DNA of 32,000 nt. It comes from Crocosphaera subtropica ATCC 51142 (GTDB lineage: Bacteria > Cyanobacteriota > Cyanobacteriia > Cyanobacteriales > Microcystaceae). The translations under genes were made by a program, and so were the position numbers. The notes below the pieces were generated by a model that made no database searches, was not told the origin of the DNA, and was given only the letters and a program-made list of their open reading frames with translations. The DNA lies in assembly GCF_000017845.1 (NCBI RefSeq), contig NC_010546.1, positions 3,090,001 to 3,122,000 on the forward strand. The letters run 5' to 3'. Position 1 is the first letter of the stretch. Each line of letters opens with the position of its first letter. Positions 5,509 through 29,500 of this stretch are shown here, piece after piece.

Positions 5509-5648
5509 AAGAGATTTCCTGTGCTGACAAAAATAGGGAGTGATTCTTGAAGCAGCAGATGACCTTGGCTGTTTGTTGAGCCTATAAAAATGATATCTAT
5601 TAATGATAGTGATCATAGAAAAACATAACACTTTTCATCGAATGCTGC

Positions 5649-10225: not shown

Positions 10226-10954
10226 ATGATATTATCATCCCCCCCTGTGAATACAGACCCCTTTTTACTTGAAATTGACCACCTTGTCATTTACACAGCA
10301 GAGCCGATCGCTGCCGTCTCCATGTTGCAAGAACTGGGACTCCATAGCTCTAGTCAGACATTGCGACGAAACAATCAAGGAACGGCCTCAACGATCTTTT
10401 TCTTTGAAAATATCTATCTCGAAATTGTCTGGATCGAAGATTACCAAAAAGTTCAGCACTATAGGACACAAACAAACATCGATATTCTCTCTCGGGTTAA
10501 CTGGAAACAGACCGGAGCCTCTCCCTTTGCCATCGGTTTACGTCAGACAACCAGTCTCAGTCGTTTACCCTACGGTGATGATGATAATGGAATCTCCCAA
10601 AGGCTTAACGTGAATGGATGGGTAAACTTTGCCTCGGATAATCTGGCCACCCTATCCGAACCAATTTGTTATAGTATTTCTAATTTAATGGCCTTAACCA
10701 CCTGGCTCGATAATTCTTCTGAAGAACATCAACAATTGATCACCCATCCCCTTAACATCAAAAAATTAACAGACCTTCAGATCACCTTGACCCAACATAA
10801 CTTACTGACTCAAGCCGTTTCCTTGCTAGAGTCTCATAACCTTGTGTCCATCAACCGAGGAACAGCCCCCCAATTAGATTTAACCTTTGACCATCACCAA
10901 CAAGGGCAATACATTGATGTTCGACCAATTTTACCATTGGTACTGAAATATTAA
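10226..10954 (+). CDS. VOC-superfamily (glyoxalase-like domain) protein
   Basis: 242-aa ORF. The N-terminal LEIDHLVIYTAEPIAAVSMLQELGL...GTASTIFFFENIYLEIVWIED matches the Glyoxalase_3-type pattern (IDHLV...A...LGF...GT.N..F....YLELI.I.D). The stop is 3 nt before the receptor start, so the two look translationally linked. Confidence 0.55.
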   Translation: MILSSPPVNTDPFLLEIDHLVIYTAEPIAAVSMLQELGLHSSSQTLRRNNQGTASTIFFFENIYLEIVWIEDYQKVQHYRTQTNIDILSRVNWKQTGASPFAIGLRQTTSLSRLPYGDDDNGISQRLNVNGWVNFASDNLATLSEPICYSISNLMALTTWLDNSSEEHQQLITHPLNIKKLTDLQITLTQHNLLTQAVSLLESHNLVSINRGTAPQLDLTFDHHQQGQYIDVRPILPLVLKY

Positions 10955-10957
10955 GTA

Positions 10958-14471: not shown

Positions 14472-15293
14472 ATGGAATGGTTGTCTGCTCCCCTTAGCTT
14501 TGCCAAGTATGTATTAACGGCCTTTATCATGTATGGTTGTTTTATCCTCATTGAGCGTTTACGTCCCGTTGAACCGCATCAACCCCTAAGTCATCTCTGG
14601 TTTAACTTACGATGGTATGTTGTTTATACGTTGGTAAGTTTTGCCCTTCAAGCCATAGGAATAGGTATTGTAATTAATTTAATGCAAAATTGGTTAGGAT
14701 TACCGTTAATTAACTTACCGGTGCCGGATACCCCTTGGCTTTATGGACTGATGGCATTATTCTATTTTTTAGTTACAGATTTTTTCTATTATTGGTTTCA
14801 CCGTTGGCAACATACCACCCGGTTATGGGAACAGCATAAGTTTCATCATAGTGAAATGTCTCTGAATGTGACCAGCACACGACGGGTACATTGGTTAGAA
14901 GATCCCTTGTTACTGTTATTTTTAGGGCTTCCTATGGGATTATTGTTTCAGTTTAATGGTCTGGCGTTAGGAATTTTAACGTTTATTGAAATTCTTTGGT
15001 TACAGTTTATTCATTTGAATCTACGATTAAACTTAGGTTGGTTATCCCCTGTGATCACCGGTCCACAATATCATCGTCTCCATCATTCCTTTCAAACGGA
15101 GCATTTAGATAAGAATTTTGCTGCTTTTTTCCCGTTATGGGATATTCTATTTGGAACTTATTATCATCCCCGTCGTGATGAGTTTCCCCCCACAGGATTG
15201 ACAACAGGAGAAACTTACAATAATTTATGGGAAGCGAATCTTTTGCCCTTTCGAGGATGGCTCGGTTCTCAGTCAGTACCTGAACATAAATAA
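14472..15293 (+). CDS. Fatty acid hydroxylase / sterol desaturase superfamily integral membrane di-iron enzyme
   Basis: 273 aa with several hydrophobic helices. Histidine boxes: HRWQH (HX3H), HKFHH (HX2HH) and HRLHH (HX2HH). AGGAA lies upstream of the ATG. Confidence 0.8.
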   Translation: MEWLSAPLSFAKYVLTAFIMYGCFILIERLRPVEPHQPLSHLWFNLRWYVVYTLVSFALQAIGIGIVINLMQNWLGLPLINLPVPDTPWLYGLMALFYFLVTDFFYYWFHRWQHTTRLWEQHKFHHSEMSLNVTSTRRVHWLEDPLLLLFLGLPMGLLFQFNGLALGILTFIEILWLQFIHLNLRLNLGWLSPVITGPQYHRLHHSFQTEHLDKNFAAFFPLWDILFGTYYHPRRDEFPPTGLTTGETYNNLWEANLLPFRGWLGSQSVPEHK

Positions 15294-15362: not shown

Positions 15363-18300
15363 ATGATGAAAACGATTGATGAATTTTTAGCCCATCTTTA
15401 CCGTTTAGAGGTTAATCTTTGGTTAGAAGGCGATCGCCTACGCTGTAGCGCACCAGAAGAAGTATTAACCCCTGATCTCACAGAAGCACTTCAGTCCCGA
15501 AAAGGGGAGATAATTAACTTTCTCAAGCAAGTGAATCTTACGGTTAATACTGACTTAGAACCTATTAAACCCATTAACAGGGATCAACCTCTTCCCCTCT
15601 CTTTTGCTCAACAACGGTTGTGGTTCCTCGAACAGTTACAACCAGGGAGCTTTACCTATCATATTCCCACTGCGGTACGATTAACGGGTTCCCTTAATAT
15701 TCCTGTCCTAGAACAGAGTTTTAATGAAATTATTCGTCGCCATGAAACCCTACGCACCCATTTTACAATGGTCGAGGGGGAACCTGTTCAGGTTATTGAT
15801 GCAACGTTAACCCTATCTCTTCCTATTTTAAGCTTAGAATCCTTGGATGAGAGGGAGCAAGAGGCAGAAGTATTCCGTTTAGCTAGCCAAGAAGCGCAAA
15901 AACCTTTTGATTTAGCCCAAGATCCCTTACTCAGAGTTACCTTGCTGCGACTCAACCCAGCCGATCATGTGGTGCTATTGACCCTACACCATATCATTGC
16001 TGATGGTTGGTCGATGGATATTTTGATCCGAGAGTTAACCTGTCTCTATGAAGGGTTTTTAAAGGGTGAGTCGTCTCCTCTTCCCCCGTTACCGATCCAA
16101 TATGGAGACTTTGCCGCTTGGCAACGGCAACGCCTTCAAGGGGAAAAACTCGCTCAGCAACTGGCTTACTGGAAAGAGCAACTACAAGGCAGTCTCAGTG
16201 TTTTACAACTGCCCACTGATTTTTTACGCAGTAGAATACAAGGGTTTCGAGGGGGCAATGAAACGTTTACGTTATCCCCTAGGTTAACAGACAAACTTAA
16301 AGCCCTGAGTCAACAGGAAGGGGCTACTCTTTTTATGACCCTGTTGGCTGCGTTTAAGGTGCTGCTTTACCGTTACACTGGCCAGGAAGATATCATTGTT
16401 GGTTCTCCCATTGCTAACCGTAATCGTTCGGAAATCGAAGGATTGATCGGTTTTTTTGTTAACACTTTGGTATTGCGGACAAATGTAGCAGGAAATCCCA
16501 GTTTTCAGTCTTTATTAAATCAAGTGCGAGGAGTAACCTGGGGAGCTTACGATCATCAGGACTTGCCCTTTGAAAAATTAGTGGAAGAGTTACACCCAGA
16601 ACGGGATTTGAGTTACAATCCTTTGTTTCAAGTAAAATTTCGCTTAGAAAATGCGCCAACGGAGTCTTATTCTCTACCCGACTTAACCTTACGTTCTTTG
16701 AAACAGGCTTACTCTACTGCTAAGTTAGATTTAAGCTTGGATATGTATGAAACAGCAACGGGTTTAGTCGGTGGTTTTGAATATAATCGAGATTTGTTTA
16801 CCCCAGAAACCATTAACCGTATGGTAGGGCATTTTTGTACCCTGTTGGAAAGCATTGTTGATGATCCCACTCAACCGATTTCTGAATTATCTCTGTTGAG
16901 TGAAGAAGAAGAACAAACCATATTATACGACTGGAACAATACTCAAATCGATTATGCTGAAAATTGCTGCTTCCATCAACTATTTGAGGAACAAGTTGCA
17001 AAAAATCCTGATGCAGTTGCGTTAATCTTTGAAAGCCAGTCCTTAACTTATCAAGAACTGAACCAACAAAGCAATCAACTCGCCCATTATCTGCAAACGT
17101 TGGGAGTCAAACCAGAAGTTAAAGTGGGGATCTGTGTCGAGCGATCGCCTGAGATGATTATTGCGTTATTAGCCATTTTTAAGGCAGGAGGGGCTTATGT
17201 TCCCCTTGATCCGGCCTATCCCCAAGAACGGCTTGCTTTTATGGTGTCTGACTCGCAAATTTCGGTGTTATTAACCACAGAAACCTTAGCCCCAACCATT
17301 CCCCAAGCTCAAGCTCAGGTGATCTGTCTTGATAGGGACTGGAAAACGATTCGTCAAAAATCACAGGATAATCCTATCGGTGGGGTAACACCACAAAATT
17401 TAGCCTATCTCATCTATACGTCAGGCTCAACTGGCACGCCAAAAGGGGTTTTGGTGAGTCATGGAGGCTTAGTTAACTTAACCGAAGATAAAATTCGGGT
17501 GTGTCAAGTTTCCCCTGATAGCTGCGTTCTTCAGTTCTTCTCCTTTAGTTTTGATGCGTCTATCCCTGAAATAATCATGGCCTTGGGTTGTGGGGCAAAG
17601 CTTTGTTTAGCAAAATTAGAATCTTTGTTACCTGGCCCTAATCTCCTAAAATTGTTAAAAGATGAAAAAATTACCCATATAACAATTACCCCCTCTGCCC
17701 TATCGAACTTAGCCGTTACCGACTTACCCGACTTGGAAATGGTTTTAGTAGGAGGTGAGGCCCCCTCCCCTGAGCTTATAGACAACTGGTCAGGCGATCG
17801 CCTATTTATTAATGCCTACGGCCCCACAGAAGTAACCGTTAACGCCAGTATGGTTCCCTGTGGTAACGGCCATCCCACCCTTCCCACCCTTCTTCCCAGT
17901 GCCAATAAACAGCTTTATATTTTAGATCGTCATCTGCAACCCGTTCCTGTCGGAGTCTTAGGAGAGCTCCATATTGGGGGTGTGGGGTTAGCAAGGGGTT
18001 ATCTCAACCGTCCTGACTTAACTGCAGAAAGATTTATCCCCAGTCCTTTTGATCCCCCCCTTCCACTCCTTAGGAAAGGGGGGAAGAAGCAGGGAGCAAG
18101 ATTATATAAAACGGGGGATCTGGCCTGTTATTTGCCTGATGGTCGCATTAAATTATTAGGTCGTCTGGATAACCAGCTTAAAATTAGAGGGTTTCGCCTA
18201 GAAACCGGGGAAATTGAAACATTATTACAACAACATCCCCAGATTAAAGCGACTGTGGTCATAGGGCGAGAAGAGGTATCAGGAGATAAACGTTTAGTGG

Positions 18301-18785
18301 CTTATTATGTGGCTGAACCTACTGTTCCCTCGGCTAGTGAACTGCGACAGTTTTTAAGGGAAAAACTGCCCGAATATGCCATTCCTAGTGCGTTTGTTTC
18401 TTTAGAGGCTTTCCCCCTCACCCCTAACGGAAAAATTGATATAAAGTCCCTTCCTGCCCCAGAGCAGAGCCGTTCTACAGGGGACTGGTACGCCCCAAGA
18501 ACGGAAACGGAAAAAGCAGTGGCGCAGGTTTTTTCCCAAGTGTTGGAAGTGGAAAAAGTGAGCATTAATGATGACTTTTTTGACCTAGGGGGTCATTCCT
18601 TATTAGCTACTCGTTTAATCGCCCAATTACTCGAAATCTTTCCCGTTGATATCACTATTATCGATCTCTTTGAAGCTCCTACCATTATGGGACTAGCTGA
18701 ACGCATTGAAGGGAAACAAATGCGCGATCGCCTTCAAACCGTTGAAGAAGAGGTTACAGAGGAACGAGAGGAGATTGAAATTTAA
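15363..18785 (+). CDS. Non-ribosomal peptide synthetase, one module: N-terminal TubC-type beta-hairpin docking domain, C, A, T, and an acidic C-terminal tail
   Basis: 1140 aa. Dock: aa 1-55, IDEFLAHLYRLEVNLWLEGDRLRCSAPEEVLTPDLTEALQSRKGEIINFL. C domain: SFAQQRLWFL, HHIIADGWS (aa 209-217), IGFFVNTLVLR. A domain: LTYQELN, LAYLIYTSGSTGTPKGV, FDAS, NAYGPTE, YKTGDL, GRLDNQLKIRGFRLETGEIE, PNGKID. T domain: FFDLGGHSLLATRL (Ser1079). The tail ends ...VEEEVTEEREEIEI. Confidence 0.97.
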   Translation: MMKTIDEFLAHLYRLEVNLWLEGDRLRCSAPEEVLTPDLTEALQSRKGEIINFLKQVNLTVNTDLEPIKPINRDQPLPLSFAQQRLWFLEQLQPGSFTYHIPTAVRLTGSLNIPVLEQSFNEIIRRHETLRTHFTMVEGEPVQVIDATLTLSLPILSLESLDEREQEAEVFRLASQEAQKPFDLAQDPLLRVTLLRLNPADHVVLLTLHHIIADGWSMDILIRELTCLYEGFLKGESSPLPPLPIQYGDFAAWQRQRLQGEKLAQQLAYWKEQLQGSLSVLQLPTDFLRSRIQGFRGGNETFTLSPRLTDKLKALSQQEGATLFMTLLAAFKVLLYRYTGQEDIIVGSPIANRNRSEIEGLIGFFVNTLVLRTNVAGNPSFQSLLNQVRGVTWGAYDHQDLPFEKLVEELHPERDLSYNPLFQVKFRLENAPTESYSLPDLTLRSLKQAYSTAKLDLSLDMYETATGLVGGFEYNRDLFTPETINRMVGHFCTLLESIVDDPTQPISELSLLSEEEEQTILYDWNNTQIDYAENCCFHQLFEEQVAKNPDAVALIFESQSLTYQELNQQSNQLAHYLQTLGVKPEVKVGICVERSPEMIIALLAIFKAGGAYVPLDPAYPQERLAFMVSDSQISVLLTTETLAPTIPQAQAQVICLDRDWKTIRQKSQDNPIGGVTPQNLAYLIYTSGSTGTPKGVLVSHGGLVNLTEDKIRVCQVSPDSCVLQFFSFSFDASIPEIIMALGCGAKLCLAKLESLLPGPNLLKLLKDEKITHITITPSALSNLAVTDLPDLEMVLVGGEAPSPELIDNWSGDRLFINAYGPTEVTVNASMVPCGNGHPTLPTLLPSANKQLYILDRHLQPVPVGVLGELHIGGVGLARGYLNRPDLTAERFIPSPFDPPLPLLRKGGKKQGARLYKTGDLACYLPDGRIKLLGRLDNQLKIRGFRLETGEIETLLQQHPQIKATVVIGREEVSGDKRLVAYYVAEPTVPSASELRQFLREKLPEYAIPSAFVSLEAFPLTPNGKIDIKSLPAPEQSRSTGDWYAPRTETEKAVAQVFSQVLEVEKVSINDDFFDLGGHSLLATRLIAQLLEIFPVDITIIDLFEAPTIMGLAERIEGKQMRDRLQTVEEEVTEEREEIEI

Positions 18786-18960: not shown

Positions 18961-21900
18961 ATGACCAATATTCCTGTTTATCTCAAAGCTAATGTTATTG
19001 TCGAACCCTTGATCAATCAATGGTATGCTTGGTCCTATTTAATTTCTCCTGCAACGGCGGCCATGTATGTGGCTAATGCTCACATTGAAATGATGGAATC
19101 ATTTGTGGCTGCACCTCACGTCCATTGTTCGGCATTGAAAAATCCTGCTATGATTGGGGGGCCGTTTATTAATTATGATGAAAGTCGCTTAGGAGAAATT
19201 AAAGGATTATTGGAGAGAACGAAACAGGAACAAAGACATTTAATAAACTTGGCACGAGCTATTGCTCAATTAGAACAAATTTTGAGCGAAGAAGCAAAGG
19301 GTTACTCGTTAGAACCCTTATATGAAAAGGTTCCAGAGGAGTTAAAAGGCTATGTAGAATTAGTTTATGACAGTTATAATCATCCGTCCATTCGTTTGAT
19401 CGAAAGATTGCTTTACCACAGCCCTTACTATAACCCTCACAGTCAAAGCATTGCCCTATCCTTAGAAAACCCCGATCGCCGTTCTTTTGTTCTTAGTACC
19501 CCTCGCTTGCCTTCTGTGCAAAATTTGCACATTAATTTACCGTTCAACGCACCACCACTGGATCAGTTCTTTGCAATGCGTCATACCCCTCAATCTTATG
19601 ATGAGATTAAAGAGGCTTTATCTATAAAATCAGACCAAGAAGCCTTATTTTCCTCCTTTTTTACCGAAGAAATTCCTAAAACGACGAAATCCTATGAAGG
19701 AGAAGGGGTAAGAATTCGTTATTTTGGTCATGCCTGTATCTTAATAGAAACCCAAGGGGTGAGTATTCTTTGTGATCCCCTCATTAGTAATGAAAACCCC
19801 ACAGGAATGCTTCGTTATAGCTATGCTGATTTACCACCTAAGATTGATTATGCTCTGATCACCCATAATCATCAAGATCATGTGATGCTAGAAACCTTGT
19901 TACAAATACGCCATAAAGTAGGTACGGTGGTGGTTCCGAAGAGTCACAAGGGACTGTTAATTGATCCGTCTCTGAAACTGGCTTTGGAATTTATCGGGTT
20001 TACTCAGGTGAGGGAAATGGATGAACTGGATACCATTGAGATTCCTGGGGGACAGATTATTAGTTTACCGTTTTTGGGGGAACATGGAGACTTAAATATT
20101 GGGGCAAAAACGGCTTATTTAATACAGGTAAAAGAGCGTTCGATTTTATGTGCAGCAGATTCCAATAATATTGAACCAAGGCTTTATGATCACTTATATG
20201 ATTTATTTGGCAATCTAGATGTTTTATTTATTGGCATGGAATGTGACGGTGCGCCCTATACTTGGGCTTATAACCCGTTATTAACAGGAACCCGTGCTAA
20301 GAAAATGGCAGAAACCCGGCGACTGGATGGCTCTGATGCTGAAAAAGCGATAGGATTGGTAGAACGGTTTTCTCCTCAACAGGTTTATGTCTATGCGATG
20401 GGTCAAGAACCTTGGTTAACCTATATTACGTCTCTTCAATATACGGATCAATCTCGTCCTATCATTGAATCTAACCGACTGGTGGAATATTGTCGCAACC
20501 GTAATATTATCAGTGGGCGATTATTGGGTCGTCAGGAGATGTTTTTGGAGGCAGAAGCAGGGAGTAAGGAGCAGGGAGTAGGGAGCAGGGAGCAGGGAGC
20601 AGAGGGAGCAGAGGGAGATCAGGTGAATAGGAAAGAGGGGGAGAAATCAATGAATGAGTTTTTAGCGGAATTGGAGCGTTTGGATATTAAACTACGGTTA
20701 GAAGGCGATCGCCTGCGATGTAATGCGCCGAAAGGGGTGTTAACGCCAGCTATCAAAGAAGCACTACAAACCCGTAAGTCTGAAATTATCGCTTTTTTGA
20801 CGCCACCAAAAACACAGGCAAATTTAAACGCTGAAGCGGTTATTGATTCCACCATTGTCCCCCAAACTCCCATCAAAATAGTTACAAAACCCGCTACAAT
20901 CTTTTTAACGGGCGCAACGGGGTTCTTAGGAACGTCCCTACTTTATGACTTATTAAAAGAGACTTCAGCGACCCTCTATTGCTTAGTTAGGGCTGAAACC
21001 GTCGAAGCAGGAAAAGAAAAACTCTGCCACGGACTAAAATTAAATTATGGTTGGGATGATGCCTTTGCGCCTCGTATGATTCCTCTGCTTGGAGACTTAT
21101 CTAAACCCTTACTAGGACTCTCCCCAGAACAGTTTCAGCAGATAGCAAGGGAAAGCGAGGTTATCTATCATAATGGGGCATGGGTGAATCATACAGCCCC
21201 TTATTCTCGCTTAAAGTCTACCAATGTTTTAGGAACCCAAGAAGTGCTACGCCTAGCCTGTGAGGGAAGGGCTAAACCCGTTCATTTTATTTCTACCGTC
21301 AGTGTGTTTAACCCTAATGATCTGTCTCAAAAACGGGTGATTAAAGAGAGCGATGCGTTAGACCCAGAGGAAGTTCCATTAGGGGGTTACGCCCAAAGTA
21401 AATGGGTTGCGGAAAAATTGGTTAAAATAGTGGAGGAAAGGGGTTTACCTGTGTCTATTTACCGCATTGGCCCGATTTCAGGTCATAGTCAAACGGGCCT
21501 TTTTAATCCCCATGATTTCCTGTATAAATTAATTATGGGCTATGTTCACTTAGGATCGGCTCCTGAAGGGGAAATGTTGTTAGATATTTTACCTGTGGAC
21601 TATGTGAGCCGTGCTATTGTTGATTTATCTCGGCAACCAGGATCGTTGGGTAAAGCTTTCCATTTGATTCATCCTCACCCTGTTTCTTCTAACCTTCTAT
21701 TTGAGCAACTGGAGGAGATGGGTTATCCTATTGAGCGGATTGCCTATGAACAGTGGTATACTAAGCTTTTAGCGGTGGCAAAGACTTCCTCGGAGCATCC
21801 TTTATATCCTTTAGTTCCCCTCTTCTCTGCTGTTCGCTCTGATGATGCCTCAGCTAAATCGTTTAATTTAAAATTTGATTGTTATAATACTTTCGAGGGA

Positions 21901-22008
21901 TTAAAGAATAGTTCTCTTACCTGTCCTCCTATCGATCACCCATTACTTAAAACTTATATCTCCTTTCTACTCGAAAACGGCTTTTTATCTACATCAAATG
22001 ATGATTAG
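18961..22008 (+). CDS. Tripartite fusion protein: CmlA-like di-iron (metallo-beta-lactamase fold) beta-hydroxylase (aa 1 to ~529), a low-complexity linker, an internal TubC-type docking domain (aa 564 to ~613), and a thioester reductase (TD/R) domain (aa ~645-1015) with no carrier domain
   Basis: 1015 aa. An N-terminal ~250-aa helical region (YLKANVIVEPLINQWYAWSYLISPATAAMY) is followed by an MBL core, YFGHACILIETQGVSILCDPL...ITHNHQDHV. The HxHxDH residues are H302/H304/D306/H307, with later acidic residues E374 (LGEHGD), D400 (AADS) and E427 (MECDG). Dock: MNEFLAELERLDIKLRLEGDRLRCNAPKGVLTPAIKEALQTRKSEIIAFL. R domain: IFLTGATGFLGTSLL (NAD(P)-binding), YCLVRA, GGYAQSKWVAEKLV (YxxxK), PVDYVSRAIV. 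Confidence 0.85.
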   Translation: MTNIPVYLKANVIVEPLINQWYAWSYLISPATAAMYVANAHIEMMESFVAAPHVHCSALKNPAMIGGPFINYDESRLGEIKGLLERTKQEQRHLINLARAIAQLEQILSEEAKGYSLEPLYEKVPEELKGYVELVYDSYNHPSIRLIERLLYHSPYYNPHSQSIALSLENPDRRSFVLSTPRLPSVQNLHINLPFNAPPLDQFFAMRHTPQSYDEIKEALSIKSDQEALFSSFFTEEIPKTTKSYEGEGVRIRYFGHACILIETQGVSILCDPLISNENPTGMLRYSYADLPPKIDYALITHNHQDHVMLETLLQIRHKVGTVVVPKSHKGLLIDPSLKLALEFIGFTQVREMDELDTIEIPGGQIISLPFLGEHGDLNIGAKTAYLIQVKERSILCAADSNNIEPRLYDHLYDLFGNLDVLFIGMECDGAPYTWAYNPLLTGTRAKKMAETRRLDGSDAEKAIGLVERFSPQQVYVYAMGQEPWLTYITSLQYTDQSRPIIESNRLVEYCRNRNIISGRLLGRQEMFLEAEAGSKEQGVGSREQGAEGAEGDQVNRKEGEKSMNEFLAELERLDIKLRLEGDRLRCNAPKGVLTPAIKEALQTRKSEIIAFLTPPKTQANLNAEAVIDSTIVPQTPIKIVTKPATIFLTGATGFLGTSLLYDLLKETSATLYCLVRAETVEAGKEKLCHGLKLNYGWDDAFAPRMIPLLGDLSKPLLGLSPEQFQQIARESEVIYHNGAWVNHTAPYSRLKSTNVLGTQEVLRLACEGRAKPVHFISTVSVFNPNDLSQKRVIKESDALDPEEVPLGGYAQSKWVAEKLVKIVEERGLPVSIYRIGPISGHSQTGLFNPHDFLYKLIMGYVHLGSAPEGEMLLDILPVDYVSRAIVDLSRQPGSLGKAFHLIHPHPVSSNLLFEQLEEMGYPIERIAYEQWYTKLLAVAKTSSEHPLYPLVPLFSAVRSDDASAKSFNLKFDCYNTFEGLKNSSLTCPPIDHPLLKTYISFLLENGFLSTSNDD
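20547..20617 (+). repeat. Purine-rich short tandem repeat inside a CDS: seven consecutive heptamers AG[C/T]A[A/G][A/G]G (20556-20604), then 2 x AGCAGAGGG. It encodes the linker EAEAGSKEQGVGSREQGAEGAEG.
   Basis: Read directly: agcaggg agtaagg agcaggg agtaggg agcaggg agcaggg agcagag ggagcagagggag. The same motif family forms the cores of the three MITE-like copies and occurs at 15310-15333 and 18072-18100. Confidence 0.9.
20650..20799 (+). other. Internal TubC-N-type (beta-hairpin) docking domain, preceded by its own SD-like GAGGGGGAG and an in-frame ATG. This is a possible internal translation start for a dock-reductase protein.
   Basis: ATG at 20650-20652 is residue M564 and is in frame ((20650-18961)/3 = 563). 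gagggggag lies at 20635-20643. The domain is roughly 50% identical to aa 5-53 of NRPS-1, and this domain class is normally at a protein N-terminus. Confidence 0.6.
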
Positions 22009-22076: not shown

Positions 22077-22991
22077 ATGACTTCCCAAACCCCCCACACG
22101 TCCCCAACCATGCTTACTGAAGACCGCTATACTGAATACGATACTTGGGCCTGGCTTTATAACGAAACGATGGGGCCTGAGTATGGTAAAAATCAAGAAA
22201 AGCCGATAGAAACCCTGTTACTGTCTCGCCTAGGAGAAGAGGCCACACTGCTGGATCTCTGTTGTGGAACGGGGCATTTAACTCAACAATTACTAGAAAA
22301 AGGGTATCAAGTTACGGGATTTGATGGCTCTGAGGGAATGTTAGCTTATGCGAGACAAAATGCCCCAAACGGTAGGTTTTTGGTCGGAGATGCCCGTGGG
22401 TTCAATTTGCCGAATGAGTTTGATGGGGTTGTTTCAAGCAGTGCTTCTCTCAATCATATTTTAAGTCTAGAAGATTTAAAAAAGGTCTTCGAGAATGTTT
22501 ATATAGCTTTGCGAAACAATGGGTTATTCTTATTTGATATGAATCATCCCGAACAGATGAAAAAATGGTGGAAAGGTAAAATTGTTGAGGGAGAAATTGC
22601 TGATGAGTATGCTTGGATGTTAGTTCCTAATTATAATGCTGAAGATAAGACAGGGAATTTTGCCATTACCCTTTTCCAAGCTCCCAATAGTCAATATTTT
22701 TCTTTATGGTCTGTGTTGAAATATCCTTTTAAGCAACTTTTATATAAACTTTTAAACTTAAGGCTATTGACTCGATTTCGGTTAAAATTATTAGCCAATT
22801 TTTCAACATGGGAAAAAGAATGGCAGCGATCGCAAATGGTTTATCAAGTAAGAGGATATGATGTAGAAGAGATTAAAATGCTTTTAGAATCAGTAGGTTT
22901 TGTTGACGTAGAGATCCGAATTATTGACGGAAGTTGTAACTTAGATAGTAATCATTCCGCTTATTTTATCTGTCGTAAACCAAGTACATAA
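22077..22991 (+). CDS. Class I SAM-dependent methyltransferase
   Basis: 304 aa. Motif I LLDLCCGTGHLTQQLLEKGYQVTGFDGSEGML, post-I GDARGF, motif II/III region FDGVVSSSASLNHI...LRNNGLFLFD. An alternative start is Met12 (22110). Confidence 0.85.
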   Translation: MTSQTPHTSPTMLTEDRYTEYDTWAWLYNETMGPEYGKNQEKPIETLLLSRLGEEATLLDLCCGTGHLTQQLLEKGYQVTGFDGSEGMLAYARQNAPNGRFLVGDARGFNLPNEFDGVVSSSASLNHILSLEDLKKVFENVYIALRNNGLFLFDMNHPEQMKKWWKGKIVEGEIADEYAWMLVPNYNAEDKTGNFAITLFQAPNSQYFSLWSVLKYPFKQLLYKLLNLRLLTRFRLKLLANFSTWEKEWQRSQMVYQVRGYDVEEIKMLLESVGFVDVEIRIIDGSCNLDSNHSAYFICRKPST

Positions 22992-23013: not shown

Positions 23014-24504
23014 ATGCAAGTTAGTTCTAAAAATAAATCAGAGATTCAGGCACAAGCTCTAAAAAACTTAATTGAATCTCATACCCAAAAAACGGCTAAA
23101 TCAAAACAACTCGCCCAACAAAACCGTCCAATTTTAGCCGATCGCAGTGCCTTGGGCATTAAGTTTTCTCCTAACCTCAAAGAAATCTGTTATCCTATTA
23201 TTATAGAACGCTCTAAAGGGCCCAAAATTTGGGATATTGACGGCAACGAATACGTTGATATTCTGATGGGATTAGGGATTAATTTATTTGGTCATAATCC
23301 CGACTTTATCAAAAAAGCGATCGCTCAACAACTAGAACAAGGTATACAAGTCGGTTCTCAAACCACCTTAGCTGCTGAAGTCGCCCAGTTAGTCAAAGAC
23401 TTGACAGGTGTGGAACGGGTGGCCTTGAGTAATACAGGAACAGAAGCGATCATGGCGGCCATTCGGATAGCCAGATCAGTCACCAAACGTCCGAAAATAG
23501 CCCTATTTACCAACTCCTATCATGGTCATAGCGATCAAACTTTGGTCAGAGCAACCTTGGCTGAATATGCGAAAAAAGCCATAAATCGTAAAATTGTTGA
23601 AAAAACAGCCAATAATAACTGGTTAAACAAGCTAACTCGTCCCCTACAAAGCCAACTGCAAAACAACCTTAACCCCAAAGCGGTTCCGGCTGCCTTGGGT
23701 ATTCCCCCCAGTCTAGCCAAGGATGTCTTGGTGCTAGAATACGGTAACGATCGCTCCCTAGACATCATTAAAGCCTACCGCCAGCAACTGGCCGCCATTT
23801 TAGTCGAACCCGTTCAAAGTCGATGTCCAGAGTTGCAACCCCAAGCTTTTCTCAAAACCTTACGGCAAGTGACCCAAGAAGCAGATATTGCCCTTATTTT
23901 TGATGAAATGGTGACTGGGTTTCGTATTCATCAGGGAGGCGCACAAGCATGGTTTGGGGTAGAAGCTGATATTGTCACCTATAGTAAGATTGCGGGTGGA
24001 GGGTTACCTTTATCTATTATTGCAGGGAAAGCAGCTTATTTAGACCGTATTGATGGGGGAATGTGGCAGTTTGGGGATGACTCATCTCCCCTTGTTGAAC
24101 CCACCTTTTTTGCAGGAACCTATTGTAAACATCCCCTCTCCTTAGCTGCGGCCAAAGCAACTTTAGATCATCTCAAAACTGAGGGGCTTAGCCTTCAAGA
24201 CGGACTTAACCGCAAAACAGCGAAATTCGTTACTATTTTAAACAGTGAACTGAAAGCTAGAGATAGGCCCATACAATTCACTTATTTTGGCTCATTTTTC
24301 GCCTTGGATCTTTCTCAAAGTGTTATTTCACCCTTAGCCCTCAACTTACTGTCCTATTATTTACTCCGTCGAGGGGTGCATTTACGGCAAGGTGATCGGG
24401 GTGGCTTTTTATCCACAGCCCATACTGAGGATGATATTAAGTTTATCATCCAGGGCTTTTTAGACAGTATCAATGACTTACAAATGGGAGGATTTTTAGG
24501 TTAA
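23014..24504 (+). CDS. Class-III PLP-dependent aminotransferase (glutamate-1-semialdehyde aminomutase-like, of the kind found as AMT domains in hybrid NRPS/PKS lines)
   Basis: 496 aa. KGPKIWDIDGNEYVDILMGLGINLFGHNP, SNTGTEAIMAAIRIARSVTKRPKIALFTNSYHGHSD, FDEMVTGFR, and the PLP-lysine context DIVTYSKIAGGGLPLS. It contains a ~55-aa insertion (AEYAKKAINRKIVEKTANNNWLNKLTRPLQSQLQNNLNPK). Confidence 0.85.
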   Translation: MQVSSKNKSEIQAQALKNLIESHTQKTAKSKQLAQQNRPILADRSALGIKFSPNLKEICYPIIIERSKGPKIWDIDGNEYVDILMGLGINLFGHNPDFIKKAIAQQLEQGIQVGSQTTLAAEVAQLVKDLTGVERVALSNTGTEAIMAAIRIARSVTKRPKIALFTNSYHGHSDQTLVRATLAEYAKKAINRKIVEKTANNNWLNKLTRPLQSQLQNNLNPKAVPAALGIPPSLAKDVLVLEYGNDRSLDIIKAYRQQLAAILVEPVQSRCPELQPQAFLKTLRQVTQEADIALIFDEMVTGFRIHQGGAQAWFGVEADIVTYSKIAGGGLPLSIIAGKAAYLDRIDGGMWQFGDDSSPLVEPTFFAGTYCKHPLSLAAAKATLDHLKTEGLSLQDGLNRKTAKFVTILNSELKARDRPIQFTYFGSFFALDLSQSVISPLALNLLSYYLLRRGVHLRQGDRGGFLSTAHTEDDIKFIIQGFLDSINDLQMGGFLG

Positions 24505-24561: not shown

Positions 24562-24861
24562 ATGGCAGTTATGGGAAAATATTGTAAGGCATATCTTTTA
24601 AAAGATTTACGTCAATTTAGTCAGTGGACTGAACAAGCAGAAAATGTCAGGGAAGAAACCCAAGAGGTTGAAGGGAAGCAAGTTCAAGTTAAGCGAAAAT
24701 TAAGGGATGATGATTTTCTCTATTTACAAGAAAATTATGTGGTTACCGATGGCATTTTTAAGGATGAAAACATTATTTTTGACAAGGTAACTGATGACTG
24801 GAAAGACTTTTGTAACAATAGACTCCAGTTTGAAATCCCTTTAGCTGTTGAGTCTAATTAA
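24562..24861 (+). CDS. Conserved hypothetical protein (99 aa)
   Basis: AGGAGG lies about 10 nt upstream. The N-terminal GKYCKAY.L..LR.F..W motif resembles a small cyanobacterial protein family of unknown function (from memory). No catalytic motif was recognised. Confidence 0.55.
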   Translation: MAVMGKYCKAYLLKDLRQFSQWTEQAENVREETQEVEGKQVQVKRKLRDDDFLYLQENYVVTDGIFKDENIIFDKVTDDWKDFCNNRLQFEIPLAVESN

Positions 24862-25008: not shown

Positions 25009-25230
25009 ATGCAACAAGATCACAGAGAAGATACAACGATCTATCGAGTTGTGGTCAACCACGAAGAACAATATTCTATTTGGCCAGAGTATCGAGACAT
25101 TCCTCCAGGTTGGCGAGATACAGGAAAAAGTGGACAAAAACAAGAGTGTCTTGACTATATCAAAGAAGTTTGGACAGATATGCGTCCTCTCAGTTTACGC
25201 AAAAAAATGGAAGAATCTGCTCATGGTTAG
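25009..25230 (+). CDS. MbtH-like protein (NRPS adenylation-domain chaperone)
   Basis: [49 protein letters not shown] carries the N.E.QYS.WP...P.GW...G....CL.YI...WTDMRP signature. I chose the ATG at 25009 (GGAG 7-10 nt upstream) over the track start at 24997, which is a TTG. Confidence 0.9.
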
Positions 25231-25272: not shown

Positions 25273-25734
25273 ATGACCCAACCTTATCCTAACTATTTAC
25301 TTGAGTTGCTAGTTCCTTGGGACTTACCCATCGAACAGCAACTTGATGAGTTTGATAAGGAACAATTAACCAAAATACTTGATCAATTTTTACAAGCTTT
25401 AGAACAACCATCCCCAGAAAAAGAACGCATTATTATTGAGCAAATATTAGTCTCCCTTGAAACAATAGAAGTGTTTCCTGTTGAGATTCCCTCAACAAAA
25501 TCTTATCTTGAAAATTGGGAGGTTGCTGATTACGATAAATATTTTGATGTTATGCGTGTACAAAGTGCTAAACCTGCATTTTCCCTATTAAAAGGAGTTG
25601 TGATCGCTTACCACGCCTTTTTATCACTTCATTATCAAAATAAACAATTAAACTCAACACAAATAGTATTGCAAAAGCAAGGATTTATTAGTTATGCTTG
25701 TTTACTGATTAGAGTGTGTGATTTACCCTTATAA
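25273..25734 (+). CDS. Hypothetical protein (153 aa), acidic and predicted helical, no recognisable motif
   Basis: The ORF follows the MbtH-like gene after 42 nt on the same strand inside the NRPS cluster. I recognise no family. Confidence 0.45.
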   Translation: MTQPYPNYLLELLVPWDLPIEQQLDEFDKEQLTKILDQFLQALEQPSPEKERIIIEQILVSLETIEVFPVEIPSTKSYLENWEVADYDKYFDVMRVQSAKPAFSLLKGVVIAYHAFLSLHYQNKQLNSTQIVLQKQGFISYACLLIRVCDLPL

Positions 25735-25842: not shown

Positions 25843-26370
25843 ATGAATAAACTTAACTCTGTACAAACTTGGAAAGGCTTTCACTGGGCTTTTTTTATCA
25901 ATATCCAGGGACTCATTATCTGTCTACAACGCTTTGAAAAATATGTAATGACTGAGGATATTCCCAAAGCAAAAATTGAACTAGAAACAGCAACACAGCT
26001 AATTTTAGCCTCTGGTGCAGCCATGCAACTCGCAGGAAGTTTTAACCGACAAGAATATGAAAATAAAGTGCGTCAAACCATGACTCCGCCTTCTGTACAG
26101 TCAGAAAATTTTAGCGGTTTGATGTCTTGGGAACACGCTTCTTTAATACAGCTTTGGAAAAAACTTCGACCTGTTTTTGAAACTTTACCACCGTCTTTAA
26201 AACCACATCATGAAAAGTTTGTTGCTGCTTATTTTAGTCTGATTAATTCCCATAAAAAAGTTTGTAAAAAATTTGGTGGTGGCGAATCAGGAAGTTTACG
26301 GTTTGGTAATACAAAAGCCGTTGATACCTTGGAAAAATTTGGTCATGGGCGAGCTAAACTGATTAAGTAA
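25843..26370 (+). CDS. Hypothetical protein (175 aa), helical. The stop codon lies in the terminus of MITE copy 2.
   Basis: ORF in the cluster. Motifs FSGLMSWEH and SHKKVCKKFGGGESGS are noted, but I cannot place them in a family. Confidence 0.5.
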   Translation: MNKLNSVQTWKGFHWAFFINIQGLIICLQRFEKYVMTEDIPKAKIELETATQLILASGAAMQLAGSFNRQEYENKVRQTMTPPSVQSENFSGLMSWEHASLIQLWKKLRPVFETLPPSLKPHHEKFVAAYFSLINSHKKVCKKFGGGESGSLRFGNTKAVDTLEKFGHGRAKLIK

Positions 26371-26519: not shown

Positions 26520-29500
26520 TCATTTCAATTTTTTGACCGACTGTTTGAGTTTACCCAAAAACTGATCCAGTTGCTTTTGATCGAGGTTGGCTGAAGCAAA
26601 GTCTGAAGGGGTATAACCGCCAGTCTTGGAAGACTGACAATGGACAATAAACGCTTCTAGGGTACTCAGAACTTTCTTCCCTAGGCCTTCTATGGTTTCA
26701 CGACGATGGATCTGCTGACTATAGGTCAAGGTTAATTGTAACTGTTTTTGAGCGATCGCCCCTGTTATTTCCAGTAAGTAACGACGACTTCCTTGAGGAG
26801 AACGAACCCACCCTGTTGACTCCTCCGCTAGTCCTGAGATAAATTCTTGAGTGGTGATCCGATCAACTTCACCCAGATAGTTAAAATTGATGGAAGATGA
26901 CCTTTTATTGAGGATTTTTCGCCCCAAATAACGCAGAATACCGTAATTAATTCCCTGTTTAGCGACCTGACGATACTGTTCTTTTACAGACTTGATCACG
27001 TCTCCCAAAGACCCCATAGACTTTAATTCTAATCGTACAGGAAAAATGACAGTAAACCAGCCGACGGTACGGGAGAGATTAACCGTTTCAAAGATATCTT
27101 CCCGTCCATGACCCTCTACATCAATGATCAGCGATCGCTCACCAGTCCATTGAGAAATACTTTGATACAATGCAGCAAGTAACACCTCATTGAGTTGGGC
27201 ATGATAAGCTGAAGCCACTTCTTCTTGTAAAGCATTGGTTTGTTCGATACTGAGGGTAAGGGAAATGCGATCGCTTGACCCTACAGTATTATGATTCAAG
27301 CTTGTATAGTCTGTCGGTAGAGAAACCCCCTCAGACATTGACCAGACATCACTATCTAACCCCTCAGACTGACTATAATTAAGTAGCTGGTTGGCCCAGG
27401 TTTGATAAGCAGTGGTTTTCGGTGGCAGTTTAACCAGTTCTCCGTGTAATAATTGCTGATAAACAGTGACAAAATCTTCTAATAAAATGCGCCAGGACAC
27501 GCTATCTACTACCAGGTGATGAATAACGAATAAAAGACGACTTTTTTGCCCTTTTCCTAAGTCAAACCAAGCACCTCGAACCAGTAGCCCTTCCGATAAG
27601 TTCAAGGTAGTTTGTAACCTAGCACAGATGGATTCTATGGCTAAACTTTGAGCTTTTTTGCTTAAATTTTCGAGATTAATGGTTGAAAAAGGAATATTAT
27701 TATCAGTATTCCCATAAAACTGTTTCCATGCTTCCCCCTGCTGCGTAAATCGAAGTCTGAGAGCATCATGATGGATTAATAAGTGATGTAATGCCTGTTC
27801 TAAATAGTAGGGATTAAGATCAGGGAGAGCCTCTAACAATAAGGTTTGATTATAGTGGTGAGGGTCAGGTAACTGCTGCTCAAAAAACCAATGTTGAATA
27901 GGGGTCAAAGGCACCGAACCTGTTACCATGCCTTGCTCTGCTGAGGTTGTGGCTAAAACATTGGCAACGGAGGCTAATTCGGCGATGGTTTGACACTGAA
28001 ATAACTGCCTTGGGGTTAATTGTAACCCCGCTTGATTCGCCCTAGCAATGATTTGCAGACCTAAAATAGAGTCTCCCCCCAATTCAAAAAAGTTATCATA
28101 AACACCAACCTCCATCTTGCCTAAAACATCCCGCCAAATCTCGGTTAGCGTCGCTTCTTGGGGGGTACGAGGTTCTATTAGGCTTTTTTTGACATTTCTC
28201 TGGGAAAAGTCCGCCACAGGGAATCTTTGACGGTCAATTTTACCGTTTGGGGTCAAAGGAAAAGCATCTAATGAAATAAATAACGTCGGAACCATATAGG
28301 CCGGCAGCTTCTCAGACAAAAACTGACGCAGATCAGGGGGTTCAGAGGAAGCCACCACATAAGCCACTAAACGAGGAGTCTTGTTATTATCTTCTTGAAC
28401 AACAGCGATCGCCTCTTGAACCTGGGGATGCTGTCTTAACATTCCTTCAATTTCCCCTAATTCAATGCGAAATCCCCGAATTTTAACCTGATTATCAATA
28501 CGTCCTAAATATTCTATTGTTCCATCTGGTAGGTAACGAGCCAGATCCCCCGTTTTATACAAACGACTCCCTTCGATCCCCCCAACCCCTCTTAGTAAGG
28601 GGGGCGAAGGGGGGAGCGGAATAAACCTTTCTGCGGTTAAGTCGGGTCGGTTAAAGTACCCTCTAGCAACCCCAACCCCACCGATATAGAGTTCCCCTGG
28701 AACCCCTATGGGAGTTGGTTGTAAGTATTGATCTAAGATGTAAAGTTCAGTATTAGCGATAGGACGACCGATAGGAACATTCTCTGTCTGAGAGACTTGA
28801 GACGGAACTTCATAAACACAGCAACCGACAACGGTTTCGGTGGGGCCATATTCATTGATCAGACGAGTCTGGGGACATTTTTCTTGCCAAAAGGTCAAAC
28901 TGTGTTGCGATAAAGCTTCACCCCCAATAATTAAAGCATGACTTTGAGGGATTTTTTCTTTTTCAGCTAATAAAGAATTTAAAATACTTAAGTGAGCGGG
29001 AGTTAGCTTAACTAAACTTAAGTTTTCTTGGGTAAATACTTCACTTAACGCTTCAATTTCCCCTGTTTCTGGCAATAAAATTACTTTTTGTCCCACTAAA
29101 AGGGGAGTCAATAAACTGGTAATGGTGGCATCAAACGCAATAGAAGAATTAACAGGAGAACCACACCCTTCCGTCACAGGATAAGTAGCGATCGCCCAGG
29201 TTAAATAATTACTCAAACCACCATGAGTGATCAAGGTTCCTTTGGGTTTTCCTGTCGATCCTGATGTATAAATCACATAAGCTAAATTATCTTCAAATAA
29301 GGAAATAACGGAATTTTCCTGACTTTCAGAGGCAATAAGTGGCCAATCTTGATCAAGGGTTATTTTGGAGGCAGAAGTAGGGAATGTTTGAGAAATAGCT
29401 GTTTTTGTCTCCGTTAACAACACTGCTATTTGAGCATCTTCAACCATAAAAGCAATGCGTTCAGACGGGTAAGTAGGATCAATGGGAACATAAGCGGAAC

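Follow-up and report, generated by a model that had tools for sequence, protein, structure and literature searches.

A CmlA-like hydroxylase joined through an internal docking domain to a carrier-less thioester reductase in a Dmaq-type siderophore cassette of Crocosphaera subtropica

The gene considered here lies in a window of 32,000 nucleotides of Crocosphaera subtropica ATCC 51142 (assembly GCF_000017845.1, contig NC_010546.1, positions 3,090,001 to 3,122,000 of the forward strand), and all coordinates below are counted from the first letter of that window. It is a single open reading frame (ORF) of 1015 amino acids (aa) at 18961-22008 on the plus strand, in which a CmlA-like di-iron beta-hydroxylase, a TubC-type docking domain (dock) and a thioester reductase (R) domain are joined in one chain. 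It follows the gene of a nonribosomal peptide synthetase (NRPS), NRPS1, which carries condensation (C), adenylation (A) and thiolation (T, carrier) domains and ends in an acidic tail. The original prediction, made from the DNA letters, had delimited this ORF, and all its coordinates and residue numbers proved correct; it overlooked that the surroundings are the known cassette for the dimethyl-amino-tetrahydro-dihydroxyquinolinium chelator (Dmaq) found in anachelin and fabrubactin (PMC12971057). We think it rather probable that the fusion acts in trans in a Dmaq-type siderophore assembly line, as a bifunctional enzyme for tailoring and release that serves beta-hydroxylation of 3,4-dihydroxyphenylalanine (DOPA) and then reductive release. 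The features that bear directly on this proposal are as follows.

15363-18785, plus strand: NRPS1, with dock (aa 5-56), C (77-521), A (541-1024), T (1052-1115) and acidic tail; Dmaq-module synthetase (Pfam)
18708-18782, plus strand: C-terminal tail of NRPS1 past the T domain, aa 1116-1140, ...RLQTVEEEVTEEREEIEI, presumed ligand of the internal dock; the sole such tail in the window
18961-22008, plus strand: CmlA-like hydroxylase-linker-dock-linker-thioester reductase fusion; single ORF, 1015 aa
18961-20550, plus strand: CmlA-family di-iron beta-hydroxylase half, aa 1-530, made of CmlA_N (7-237) and a metallo-beta-lactamase-fold core (251-530) (Pfam, PDB alignments)
19864-19881, plus strand: HNHQDH motif with H302, H304, D306 and H307 (alignment to CmlA)
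20080-20082, 20158-20160 and 20239-20241, plus strand: di-iron ligands E374, D400 and E427 (alignment to CmlA)
20551-20649, plus strand: low-complexity linker, aa 531-563, AEAGSKEQGVGSREQGAEGAEGDQ... (AlphaFold2 pLDDT below 50 at 533-560)
20650-20799, plus strand: internal TubC-type beta-hairpin docking domain, aa 564-613, lysine type (..LRCNAPKGVLT..) (Pfam, PDB, AlphaFold2)
20896-22005, plus strand: thioester reductase domain without a carrier, aa 646-1015, with GATGFLG at 651-657 and Y810-x3-K814 (TIGR01746, PDB, alignment)

Pfam recognises four domains in the fusion (CmlA_N, Lactamase_B_3/Lactamase_B_2, TubC_N and NAD_binding_4), the families that the original prediction had proposed to look for, and the matches lie far beyond chance. 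The segments between the domains comprise just 33 and 32 residues. We modelled the fusion as a single chain with AlphaFold2 from 24 family members (mean predicted local distance difference test score, pLDDT, 79.8); this cyanobacterial, betaproteobacterial and myxobacterial set is 47-79% identical to the window protein. In the model, residues 533-560 are disordered (pLDDT <50) and a confident Rossmann-type domain begins at residue 646.

The upstream half is a full-length CmlA relative, as had been proposed for a unit of about 530 aa. CmlA_N (PF18456) matches residues 7-237 (E 1.6e-96) and the lactamase models match 251-425, and residues 1-530 align end to end with a non-haem di-iron monooxygenase (PDB 8a90, E 1e-141) and over the full length with CmlA (PDB 4jo0, E 1e-115). 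All seven metal ligands are identical to the aligned residues of both structures, which upholds the assignment of HxHxDH at 302-307 and of E374, D400 and E427 as CmlA ligands. An ordinary metallo-beta-lactamase-fold hydrolase, the contrary case that the original prediction had raised, is ruled against by the presence of CmlA_N and by the identity of every di-iron ligand with that of CmlA. The seven positions, together with long surrounding stretches, are invariant in the 24 diverse family members; since these share only 47-79% identity with the window protein, the hydroxylase half is very likely active. Its closest non-fused relatives are stand-alone CmlA-like enzymes encoded beside large NRPS genes on a Ralstonia megaplasmid (about 51%) and a Nostoc flagelliforme plasmid (59%). 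Aminoacyl-S-T is the substrate that CmlA and FrsH hydroxylate (PMC7794379), and by analogy the fusion would hydroxylate the beta-carbon of a T-bound amino acid.

The downstream half is a thioester reductase. NAD_binding_4 matches residues 649-886 (E 3.8e-64), the NCBIfam model TIGR01746 spans 646-1009 with 341 bits against a cut-off of 213, and the R domain of MxaA (PDB 4u7w) is matched with E 1e-96; G651, T653, G654, G657, Y810 and K814 are invariant in the 24 members. Pfam finds no PP-binding (carrier) domain in the fusion and detects one in the adjoining NRPS1 in the same scan, which agrees with the earlier description of an R domain lacking a T domain. This R domain is not covalently downstream of T; from residue 620 the fusion aligns with the linker that follows T in an enzyme with both in cis. 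That enzyme is the C-A-T-R protein of the anachelin locus of Anabaena cylindrica: NRPS1 residues 2-1121 are collinear with its residues 1-1112 (62% identity), and fusion residues 620-1011 align to its residues 1124-1515 (55% identity). Because NRPS1 and the R half are together collinear with this single protein, we take the two genes to encode a split C-A-T-R module; in the alignment, the Dmaq module of the window is interrupted precisely at the T-R boundary. From NRPS1 onward, the interruption consists of the acidic tail of 25 residues, a stop codon and 175 bp between the genes, and then of the hydroxylase, a linker, the dock and another linker. In many relatives the gap between the two genes is 0-30 bp.

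The dock matches TubC_N (PF18563) at residues 566-613 (E 5.2e-21; 74.9 bits, cut-off 26) and the AerJ docking domain (PDB 8aqq, E 4e-7) at 564-613. AlphaFold2 predicts helices at 564-573, 596-604 and 606-613 and strands at 577-581 and 584-588, a helix-strand-strand-helix-helix topology that Richter et al. 2008 reportedly described for TubC-type docks. A docking domain at 564-613 had been called from the letters, and family match, AerJ match and predicted topology bear it out. It starts at residue 564 of 1015 and hence not at a subunit N-terminus. The presumed partner is the acidic tail of NRPS1, 25 residues ending in ..EREEIEI, the only docking-type acidic C-terminus in all six frames of the window. 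A tail of the form ..E[ED]REE[IFM][EA][ILF] is found on the NRPS directly upstream of the fusion in essentially every locus that has this NRPS, about 60 across phyla.

Tails and docks co-vary. Among docks attached to CmlA or R domains, 83 of 91 unique sequences carry K after a conserved 'AP' (..NAPKG..), which in the LRCNAPKG motif of the fusion is residue 591 as counted from the sequence; N-terminal NRPS docks have E or D at that position (..APE/APD..) in 50 of 63. The latter belong to a second class of junction, seen across clusters, in which the NRPS preceding NRPS1 ends in G[RH]KEIEL and meets the N-terminal dock of NRPS1. Position -5 of the tail is E in tails that meet K-type docks and K for 23 of the 26 E/D-type docks with a readable upstream tail, and the sole readable NRPS junction with a K-type dock (locus L014) has the tail EEREEIEL. 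No other computational evidence speaks as strongly for binding of the NRPS1 tail by the internal dock as this charge swap, a correlation between sequences. We infer such binding for residues 564-613, and the proposal that one dock brings both enzymes to the T domain of NRPS1 gains support from collinearity, tail conservation, tail/dock co-variation and the split variants described below.

The genes around NRPS1 and the fusion place them in a siderophore setting. Running along the window, a glyoxalase-like gene, the AMIN receptor, an ABC ATPase gene and the fatty-acid-hydroxylase-family gene precede NRPS1 and the fusion, and the rest of the cassette follows.

10958-13630, plus strand: AMIN-domain TonB-dependent receptor (Pfam AMIN, Plug and TonB_dep_Rec)
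14472-15293, plus strand: fatty-acid-hydroxylase-family (membrane di-iron) gene directly upstream of NRPS1 (Pfam)
22077-22991, plus strand: S-adenosylmethionine-dependent methyltransferase, presumed N,N-dimethylation of an amine (Pfam; same position in about 60 loci, Agrobacterium and A. cylindrica)
23014-24504, plus strand: class-III aminotransferase, presumed to convert aldehyde to amine (Pfam, NCBIfam, synteny)
24562-24861, plus strand: 99-aa ORF (o99) between aminotransferase and MbtH; no family match, found in a subset of cassettes
25009-25230, plus strand: MbtH-like protein (Pfam PF03621)
25273-25734, plus strand: FbnL-like protein, 153 aa (synteny; 30% identity to an Agrobacterium 'siderophore biosynthesis protein')
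25843-26370, plus strand: FbnM-like protein, 175 aa, SfmD_perox (PF27188) (49% identity to the Agrobacterium homologue; identical to cce_3049)
26520-31265, minus strand: NRPS2, with C, A and T domains and a second Condensation-family stretch after T (Pfam)

Together FbnL and FbnM make up a haem peroxidase of two proteins, which turns tyrosine into L-DOPA (Reitz et al., eLife 2026, PMC12971057, citing Vinnik et al. 2021), and the pair serves as antiSMASH markers for Dmaq (PMC12971057). Homologues of both are present in the window, where a DOPA-type A domain, the reductase, the aminotransferase and the methyltransferase all belong to one operon. The A-domain code of NRPS1, DAPTLGAVN, is identical to those of the Dmaq modules of A. 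cylindrica and Agrobacterium; the nine pocket positions were indexed on a PheA fragment, which gave the textbook code DAWTIAAIC. The T domain of NRPS1 is presumably the carrier for both enzymes of the fusion. The 99-aa ORF recurs at 41-78% identity in many, not all, cyanobacterial cassettes and is absent from those of Agrobacterium and A. cylindrica. NRPS2 has an Asn-like A-domain code (DATKIGEVG) and a basic C-terminus (..GKLKQSVKKLK); the Condensation-family stretch after its T domain would be an epimerisation (E) domain, giving C-A-T-E, and NRPS2 probably belongs to the same assembly line.

Protein searches returned 484 matches, and we took domain architectures from the best 120. All of these, at least 120 clusters at 90% identity, have the four-domain architecture; most cover about 99% of the fusion at 47-79% identity and are cyanobacterial, and Burkholderiales and Myxococcota contribute a few. 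Where they are named at all, it is as 'thioester reductase domain-containing protein' or similar. The original prediction had taken the architecture for undescribed: the annotation is indeed generic and we found no paper describing it, but it is not rare. Our literature search found no paper on the fusion, on a trans-acting docked reductase or on hydroxylated Dmaq; the fabrubactin study of Vinnik et al. 2021, which is said to have surveyed this cluster family, lay outside that search and may mention the fusion. A phrase search of the literature for stand-alone, discrete or trans-acting thioester reductases returned nothing relevant.

A genome scan found 430 relatives, and 80 loci were kept. 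About 60 of the 80, those with enough flanking sequence, have the order NRPS, fusion, methyltransferase, aminotransferase, (o99), MbtH, FbnL-like and FbnM-like, among them Crocosphaera watsonii WH 8501, Lyngbya aestuarii, Calothrix parasitica, Nodularia, Nostoc, Leptolyngbya JSC-1, Methyloversatilis and Aquincola. The architecture is likewise a single chain in complete genomes, among them those of C. watsonii WH 8501, the PCC 7120 group and Calothrix NIES-267. The member in Anabaena sp. PCC 7120 is BAB74340.1 (one 90% cluster), and the same cassette stands there inside a large cluster of NRPS and polyketide synthase genes. This would be the all2641-all2649 siderophore cluster, which is FurA-regulated (PMC4005646).

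We also scanned metagenomes with FbnM as the anchor, which avoids the bias of using the fusion as query. Of 25 loci with a readable region upstream of R, 17 have CmlA-dock-R, seven have C-A-T-R in cis and one has dock-R without an adjacent CmlA gene; nine further loci carry FbnL/M with no reductase nearby. In L131, L134, L135, L139, L140, L151, L152 and L155, FbnL/FbnM-like pairs, often with MbtH, have no reductase, methyltransferase or aminotransferase within 6.5 kb upstream. The DOPA-forming enzymes are thus also used outside Dmaq cassettes, and a rule based on FbnL and FbnM alone may give false positives.

Several variants divide the fusion differently. In L073, from marine cyanobacterial genomes, a 619-aa CmlA-TubC_N protein with a C-terminal dock is followed 26 bp downstream by a 464-aa TubC_N-R protein with an N-terminal dock; in L072 two small ORFs separate the CmlA-dock and dock-R genes, and L071 has the CmlA-dock protein alone. 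The docks of these split proteins are all of the K type. With a dock on each, either enzyme could be recruited alone, and in the fused form one dock would serve both. L144 (3203-4699) encodes a free-standing dock-R protein of 498 aa with a K-type dock, the first gene of an operon with a methyltransferase, and neither a CmlA gene nor an NRPS lies immediately upstream. The chain is longer in the metagenomic protein P0064 (1342 aa), in which a methyltransferase is fused C-terminally to give CmlA-dock-R-MT. In a neighbour-joining tree of R domains, built without support values, the cyanobacterial cis forms, including the anachelin type, are nested within the clade of the fusion type and those of proteobacteria lie outside it, a pattern compatible with either direction of change between split and cis forms.

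Taken together, these observations suggest the following pathway. The FbnL/FbnM-like proteins would make L-DOPA, which NRPS1 would load on its T domain. The acidic tail behind that domain (..EREEIEI) would bind the lysine-type dock at 564-613, so that both catalytic domains of the fusion would be held beside the carrier on flexible linkers. The CmlA-like di-iron domain would then hydroxylate the beta (benzylic) carbon of the tethered DOPA, most likely before condensation by analogy with CmlA and FrsH. The R domain would act after condensation and free the peptidyl thioester as an aldehyde in an NAD(P)H-dependent reaction; the aminotransferase would convert the aldehyde to an amine, and the methyltransferase would dimethylate it. 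Oxidative closure of the ring would lead to a catechol-quinolinium of the Dmaq type, in which a 4-hydroxyl is either still present or was present at an earlier stage. The arrangement may have arisen from a canonical C-A-T-R Dmaq module that was cut between T and R, with tail, stop codon, hydroxylase and dock placed at the cut. Docking, substrate, order of steps and product are all inferred here, and a modified Dmaq is the predicted product of strains with the fusion; our literature search found no compound reported from such a strain. On general chemical grounds the product would be 4-hydroxy-Dmaq, or the hydroxyl would be lost through quinone-methide ring closure or through dehydration to an unsaturated chromophore.

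Several points weigh against this pathway. Neither of the two characterised Dmaq siderophores has a benzylic hydroxyl, and the A. cylindrica and Agrobacterium loci lack the hydroxylase, which is thus not needed for Dmaq itself. A shared dock would keep the reductase near the carrier at all times, so that premature release would have to be blocked, we assume, by substrate selectivity. The tail/dock charge swap is a correlation, and the contact between the K/E position and the tail is putative. NRPS1 has its own N-terminal dock of the glutamate type (15375-15530), for which no protein of the window has the matching GRKEIEL-type tail. The absence of the hydroxylase from both Dmaq loci also bears on a contending explanation, in which hydroxylation is cryptic and the benzylic hydroxyl is introduced only to be lost as water. 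By one route a quinone methide or o-quinone would supply the two-electron oxidation needed for ring attack by the tertiary amine and yield ordinary Dmaq without an external oxidase; by another, 3,4-dehydration would lead to an unsaturated, pyoverdine-like dihydroquinolinium chromophore. The canonical cassettes of Agrobacterium and A. cylindrica contain no dedicated ring-closure oxidase, ring closure in vitro was achieved only with tyrosinase (PMC6562677), a benzylic alcohol para to a phenol should lose water readily by general chemistry, and the remaining cassette is the same as in Dmaq producers. Set against this, the hydroxylase is dispensable for Dmaq in those two loci, no dehydratase candidate was identified, and the reasoning is purely chemical; we regard cryptic hydroxylation as unlikely, if still the most serious of the competing accounts.

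The enzyme might instead act on a different carrier-bound residue, such as the Asn of NRPS2, to build a beta-hydroxy-amide or -acid chelator, its fusion to the reductase serving co-expression only. Beta-hydroxy-Asp and beta-hydroxy-His are classic siderophore ligands (PMC12971057), the NRPS2 code is Asn-like, and CmlA-family enzymes accept various amino acids, Leu in FrsH being one (PMC7794379). But the siderophore hydroxylases known for Asp and His belong to another family, that of Fe/2-oxoglutarate enzymes (PMC12971057), the fusion always accompanies the DOPA module whereas upstream modules vary between loci, the one matching tail in the window belongs to NRPS1, and stand-alone CmlA-dock proteins share the K-type dock with dock-R proteins; this makes a different substrate improbable. 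Still less credible is a CmlA-like half that is a catalytically inert scaffold or adaptor on a merely trans-acting reductase. The Dmaq pathway does run without a hydroxylase in loci of the A. cylindrica and Agrobacterium types, and dock-R exists without an adjacent CmlA gene in L144, yet the invariance of the seven ligands and their flanking stretches at 47-79% identity and the full-length identity to structures of active enzymes speak for catalysis. That the long ORF is an artefact of a missed stop or a misassembly joining two genes, as the separate CmlA-dock and dock-R genes of some genomes might hint, is refuted by the comparative data: the identical ORF is present on two independent assemblies, and at least 120 clusters as well as complete genomes encode the same single chain. 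We give it practically no weight.

Docked hydroxylation followed by reductive release accordingly stays our preferred account, and a broader and more tentative proposal can be built on it, one that we hold to be possible rather than probable. Most cyanobacterial biosynthetic gene clusters now called 'Dmaq' would make an undescribed benzylically oxygenated or 3,4-dehydrated quinolinium chelator, hydroxylase and reductase would time-share one carrier tail through one internal dock, and a Lys/Glu code would separate this contact from NRPS-NRPS contacts. Were this true, it would offer a natural case of two competing trans enzymes hard-wired to one dock. The sequence architecture itself is already common in databases; its importance lies in what it implies, namely a probable effect on the chemistry of many cyanobacterial siderophores. 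Product prediction would change for a large group of clusters, and among the carriers are organisms that serve as models or matter ecologically, such as Anabaena PCC 7120, Crocosphaera watsonii, C. subtropica ATCC 51142, Nodularia and Lyngbya, all of them 'Dmaq' under current rules. The locus would also be a natural example of an assembly line gaining a tailoring step, by a cut between T and R, the addition of a docking tail and the fusion of a new enzyme to the release domain, with split and unsplit forms both at hand for comparison. The pairs EREEIEx-APK and GRKEIEL-APE would form a compact specificity code, which could be used in engineered NRPSs to bring trans enzymes to a carrier of choice.

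Other genes of the window are less closely tied to the fusion. A TonB-dependent receptor of the AMIN type at the locus supports the siderophore context. Its AMIN domain is N-terminal, as in the receptor adjoining the A. cylindrica anachelin cassette, and a preprint of July 2026 is said to describe AMIN-domain TonB-dependent transporters as an exclusively cyanobacterial class of siderophore importers. Homologues of the fatty-acid-hydroxylase-family gene, at 63-86% identity, adjoin the cassette in L037, L039, L061 and L063. At the left end of the window a unit of 348 bp is repeated 10.2 times at 96% identity (522-4067) inside a minus-strand frame at 1-5634, of at least 1878 aa, which runs off the window; it encodes acidic repeats of 116 aa (..NDTDxDGD..) and a C-terminal part that is glycine-rich and RTX-like, and its N-terminus looks DUF4347-like by eye. 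Short plus-strand ORFs spaced at 348 bp are shadows of this repeat. Two adjacent paralogues, at 5828-7678 and 7695-9632 on the minus strand, each have a PPC pre-peptidase domain and a PEP-CTERM sorting signal.

Among known systems, the Dmaq loci stand nearest to the window. A plasmid locus of Agrobacterium, which we call fabrubactin-like because it also carries a MupA/Atu3671-family monooxygenase, encodes a C-A-T-R NRPS of 1522 aa, a methyltransferase, an aminotransferase, MbtH and two 'siderophore biosynthesis proteins' (FbnL and FbnM). The A. cylindrica locus (L085) encodes a TubC_N-C-A-T-R protein of 1519 aa, a methyltransferase, an aminotransferase, a 157-aa ORF and an SfmD_perox ORF, with no MbtH called, and then a major facilitator superfamily exporter, a Suc_Fer-like protein, a binding protein and an AMIN-type receptor; it agrees with the anachelin cluster as published (compare Calteau et al. 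2014). After this cassette, L085 has a gene for a PLP-dependent decarboxylase/beta-eliminating-lyase-like protein (10606-11988, 460 aa), which is absent from the window cassette. Neither Dmaq locus has a CmlA-like gene. The window resembles the anachelin and fabrubactin modules in gene order, in the code DAPTLGAVN and in its methyltransferase, aminotransferase and FbnL/FbnM-like pair, and its R domain is orthologous to theirs (55% identity to A. cylindrica, 42% to Agrobacterium). It differs in having T and R on separate proteins, where R is covalent to T and no CmlA-like enzyme is present in the anachelin and fabrubactin systems, and in the acidic docking tail on T and the hydroxylase and dock ahead of R. 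Identity with the anachelin cluster itself was rejected, the A. cylindrica locus being cis C-A-T-R without CmlA. A cyanochelin-type cluster, suspected from the AMIN-type receptor and the reductase, was rejected as well: for cyanochelin B, aspartate is hydroxylated by Fe/2-oxoglutarate enzymes, the reductase is in cis, and Dmaq genes are absent.

The separate parts of the fusion have relatives elsewhere. CmlA of the chloramphenicol pathway (CmlA/CmlP) and FrsH of FR900359 share the two-domain fold and identical di-iron ligands and match the fusion over the full hydroxylase length, but they are free-standing and are not known to carry a docking domain, whereas in the window a dock and a release domain are attached to the C-terminal end of the enzyme. 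The fusion dock is like other TubC-type NRPS docks in Pfam match, predicted topology and a partner with a short charged C-terminal tail. The usual TubC-type dock is N-terminal and recruits the next elongation module; that of the fusion is internal, with 563 residues upstream, would recruit tailoring and release enzymes, and has a lysine-type recognition residue unlike the NRPS-NRPS docks of the same clusters. Stand-alone thioester reductases such as Zmn14 of zeamine biosynthesis likewise have an R domain that is not fused to a carrier, and none is known to have a docking domain or a fused oxygenase. The logic of release, from thioester to aldehyde to amine, is that of MxcG (C-A-T-R) and MxcL in myxochelin biosynthesis, where R is in cis and neither hydroxylase nor methylation is involved; the R half matches the NCBIfam model NRPS_MxcG at residues 619-1010 with 268 bits, far below its full-length cut-off of 2300. 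Measured against these systems, the fusion is a widespread and apparently uncharacterised variant of the pathway to the Dmaq iron-binding unit in cyanobacterial siderophores such as anachelin.

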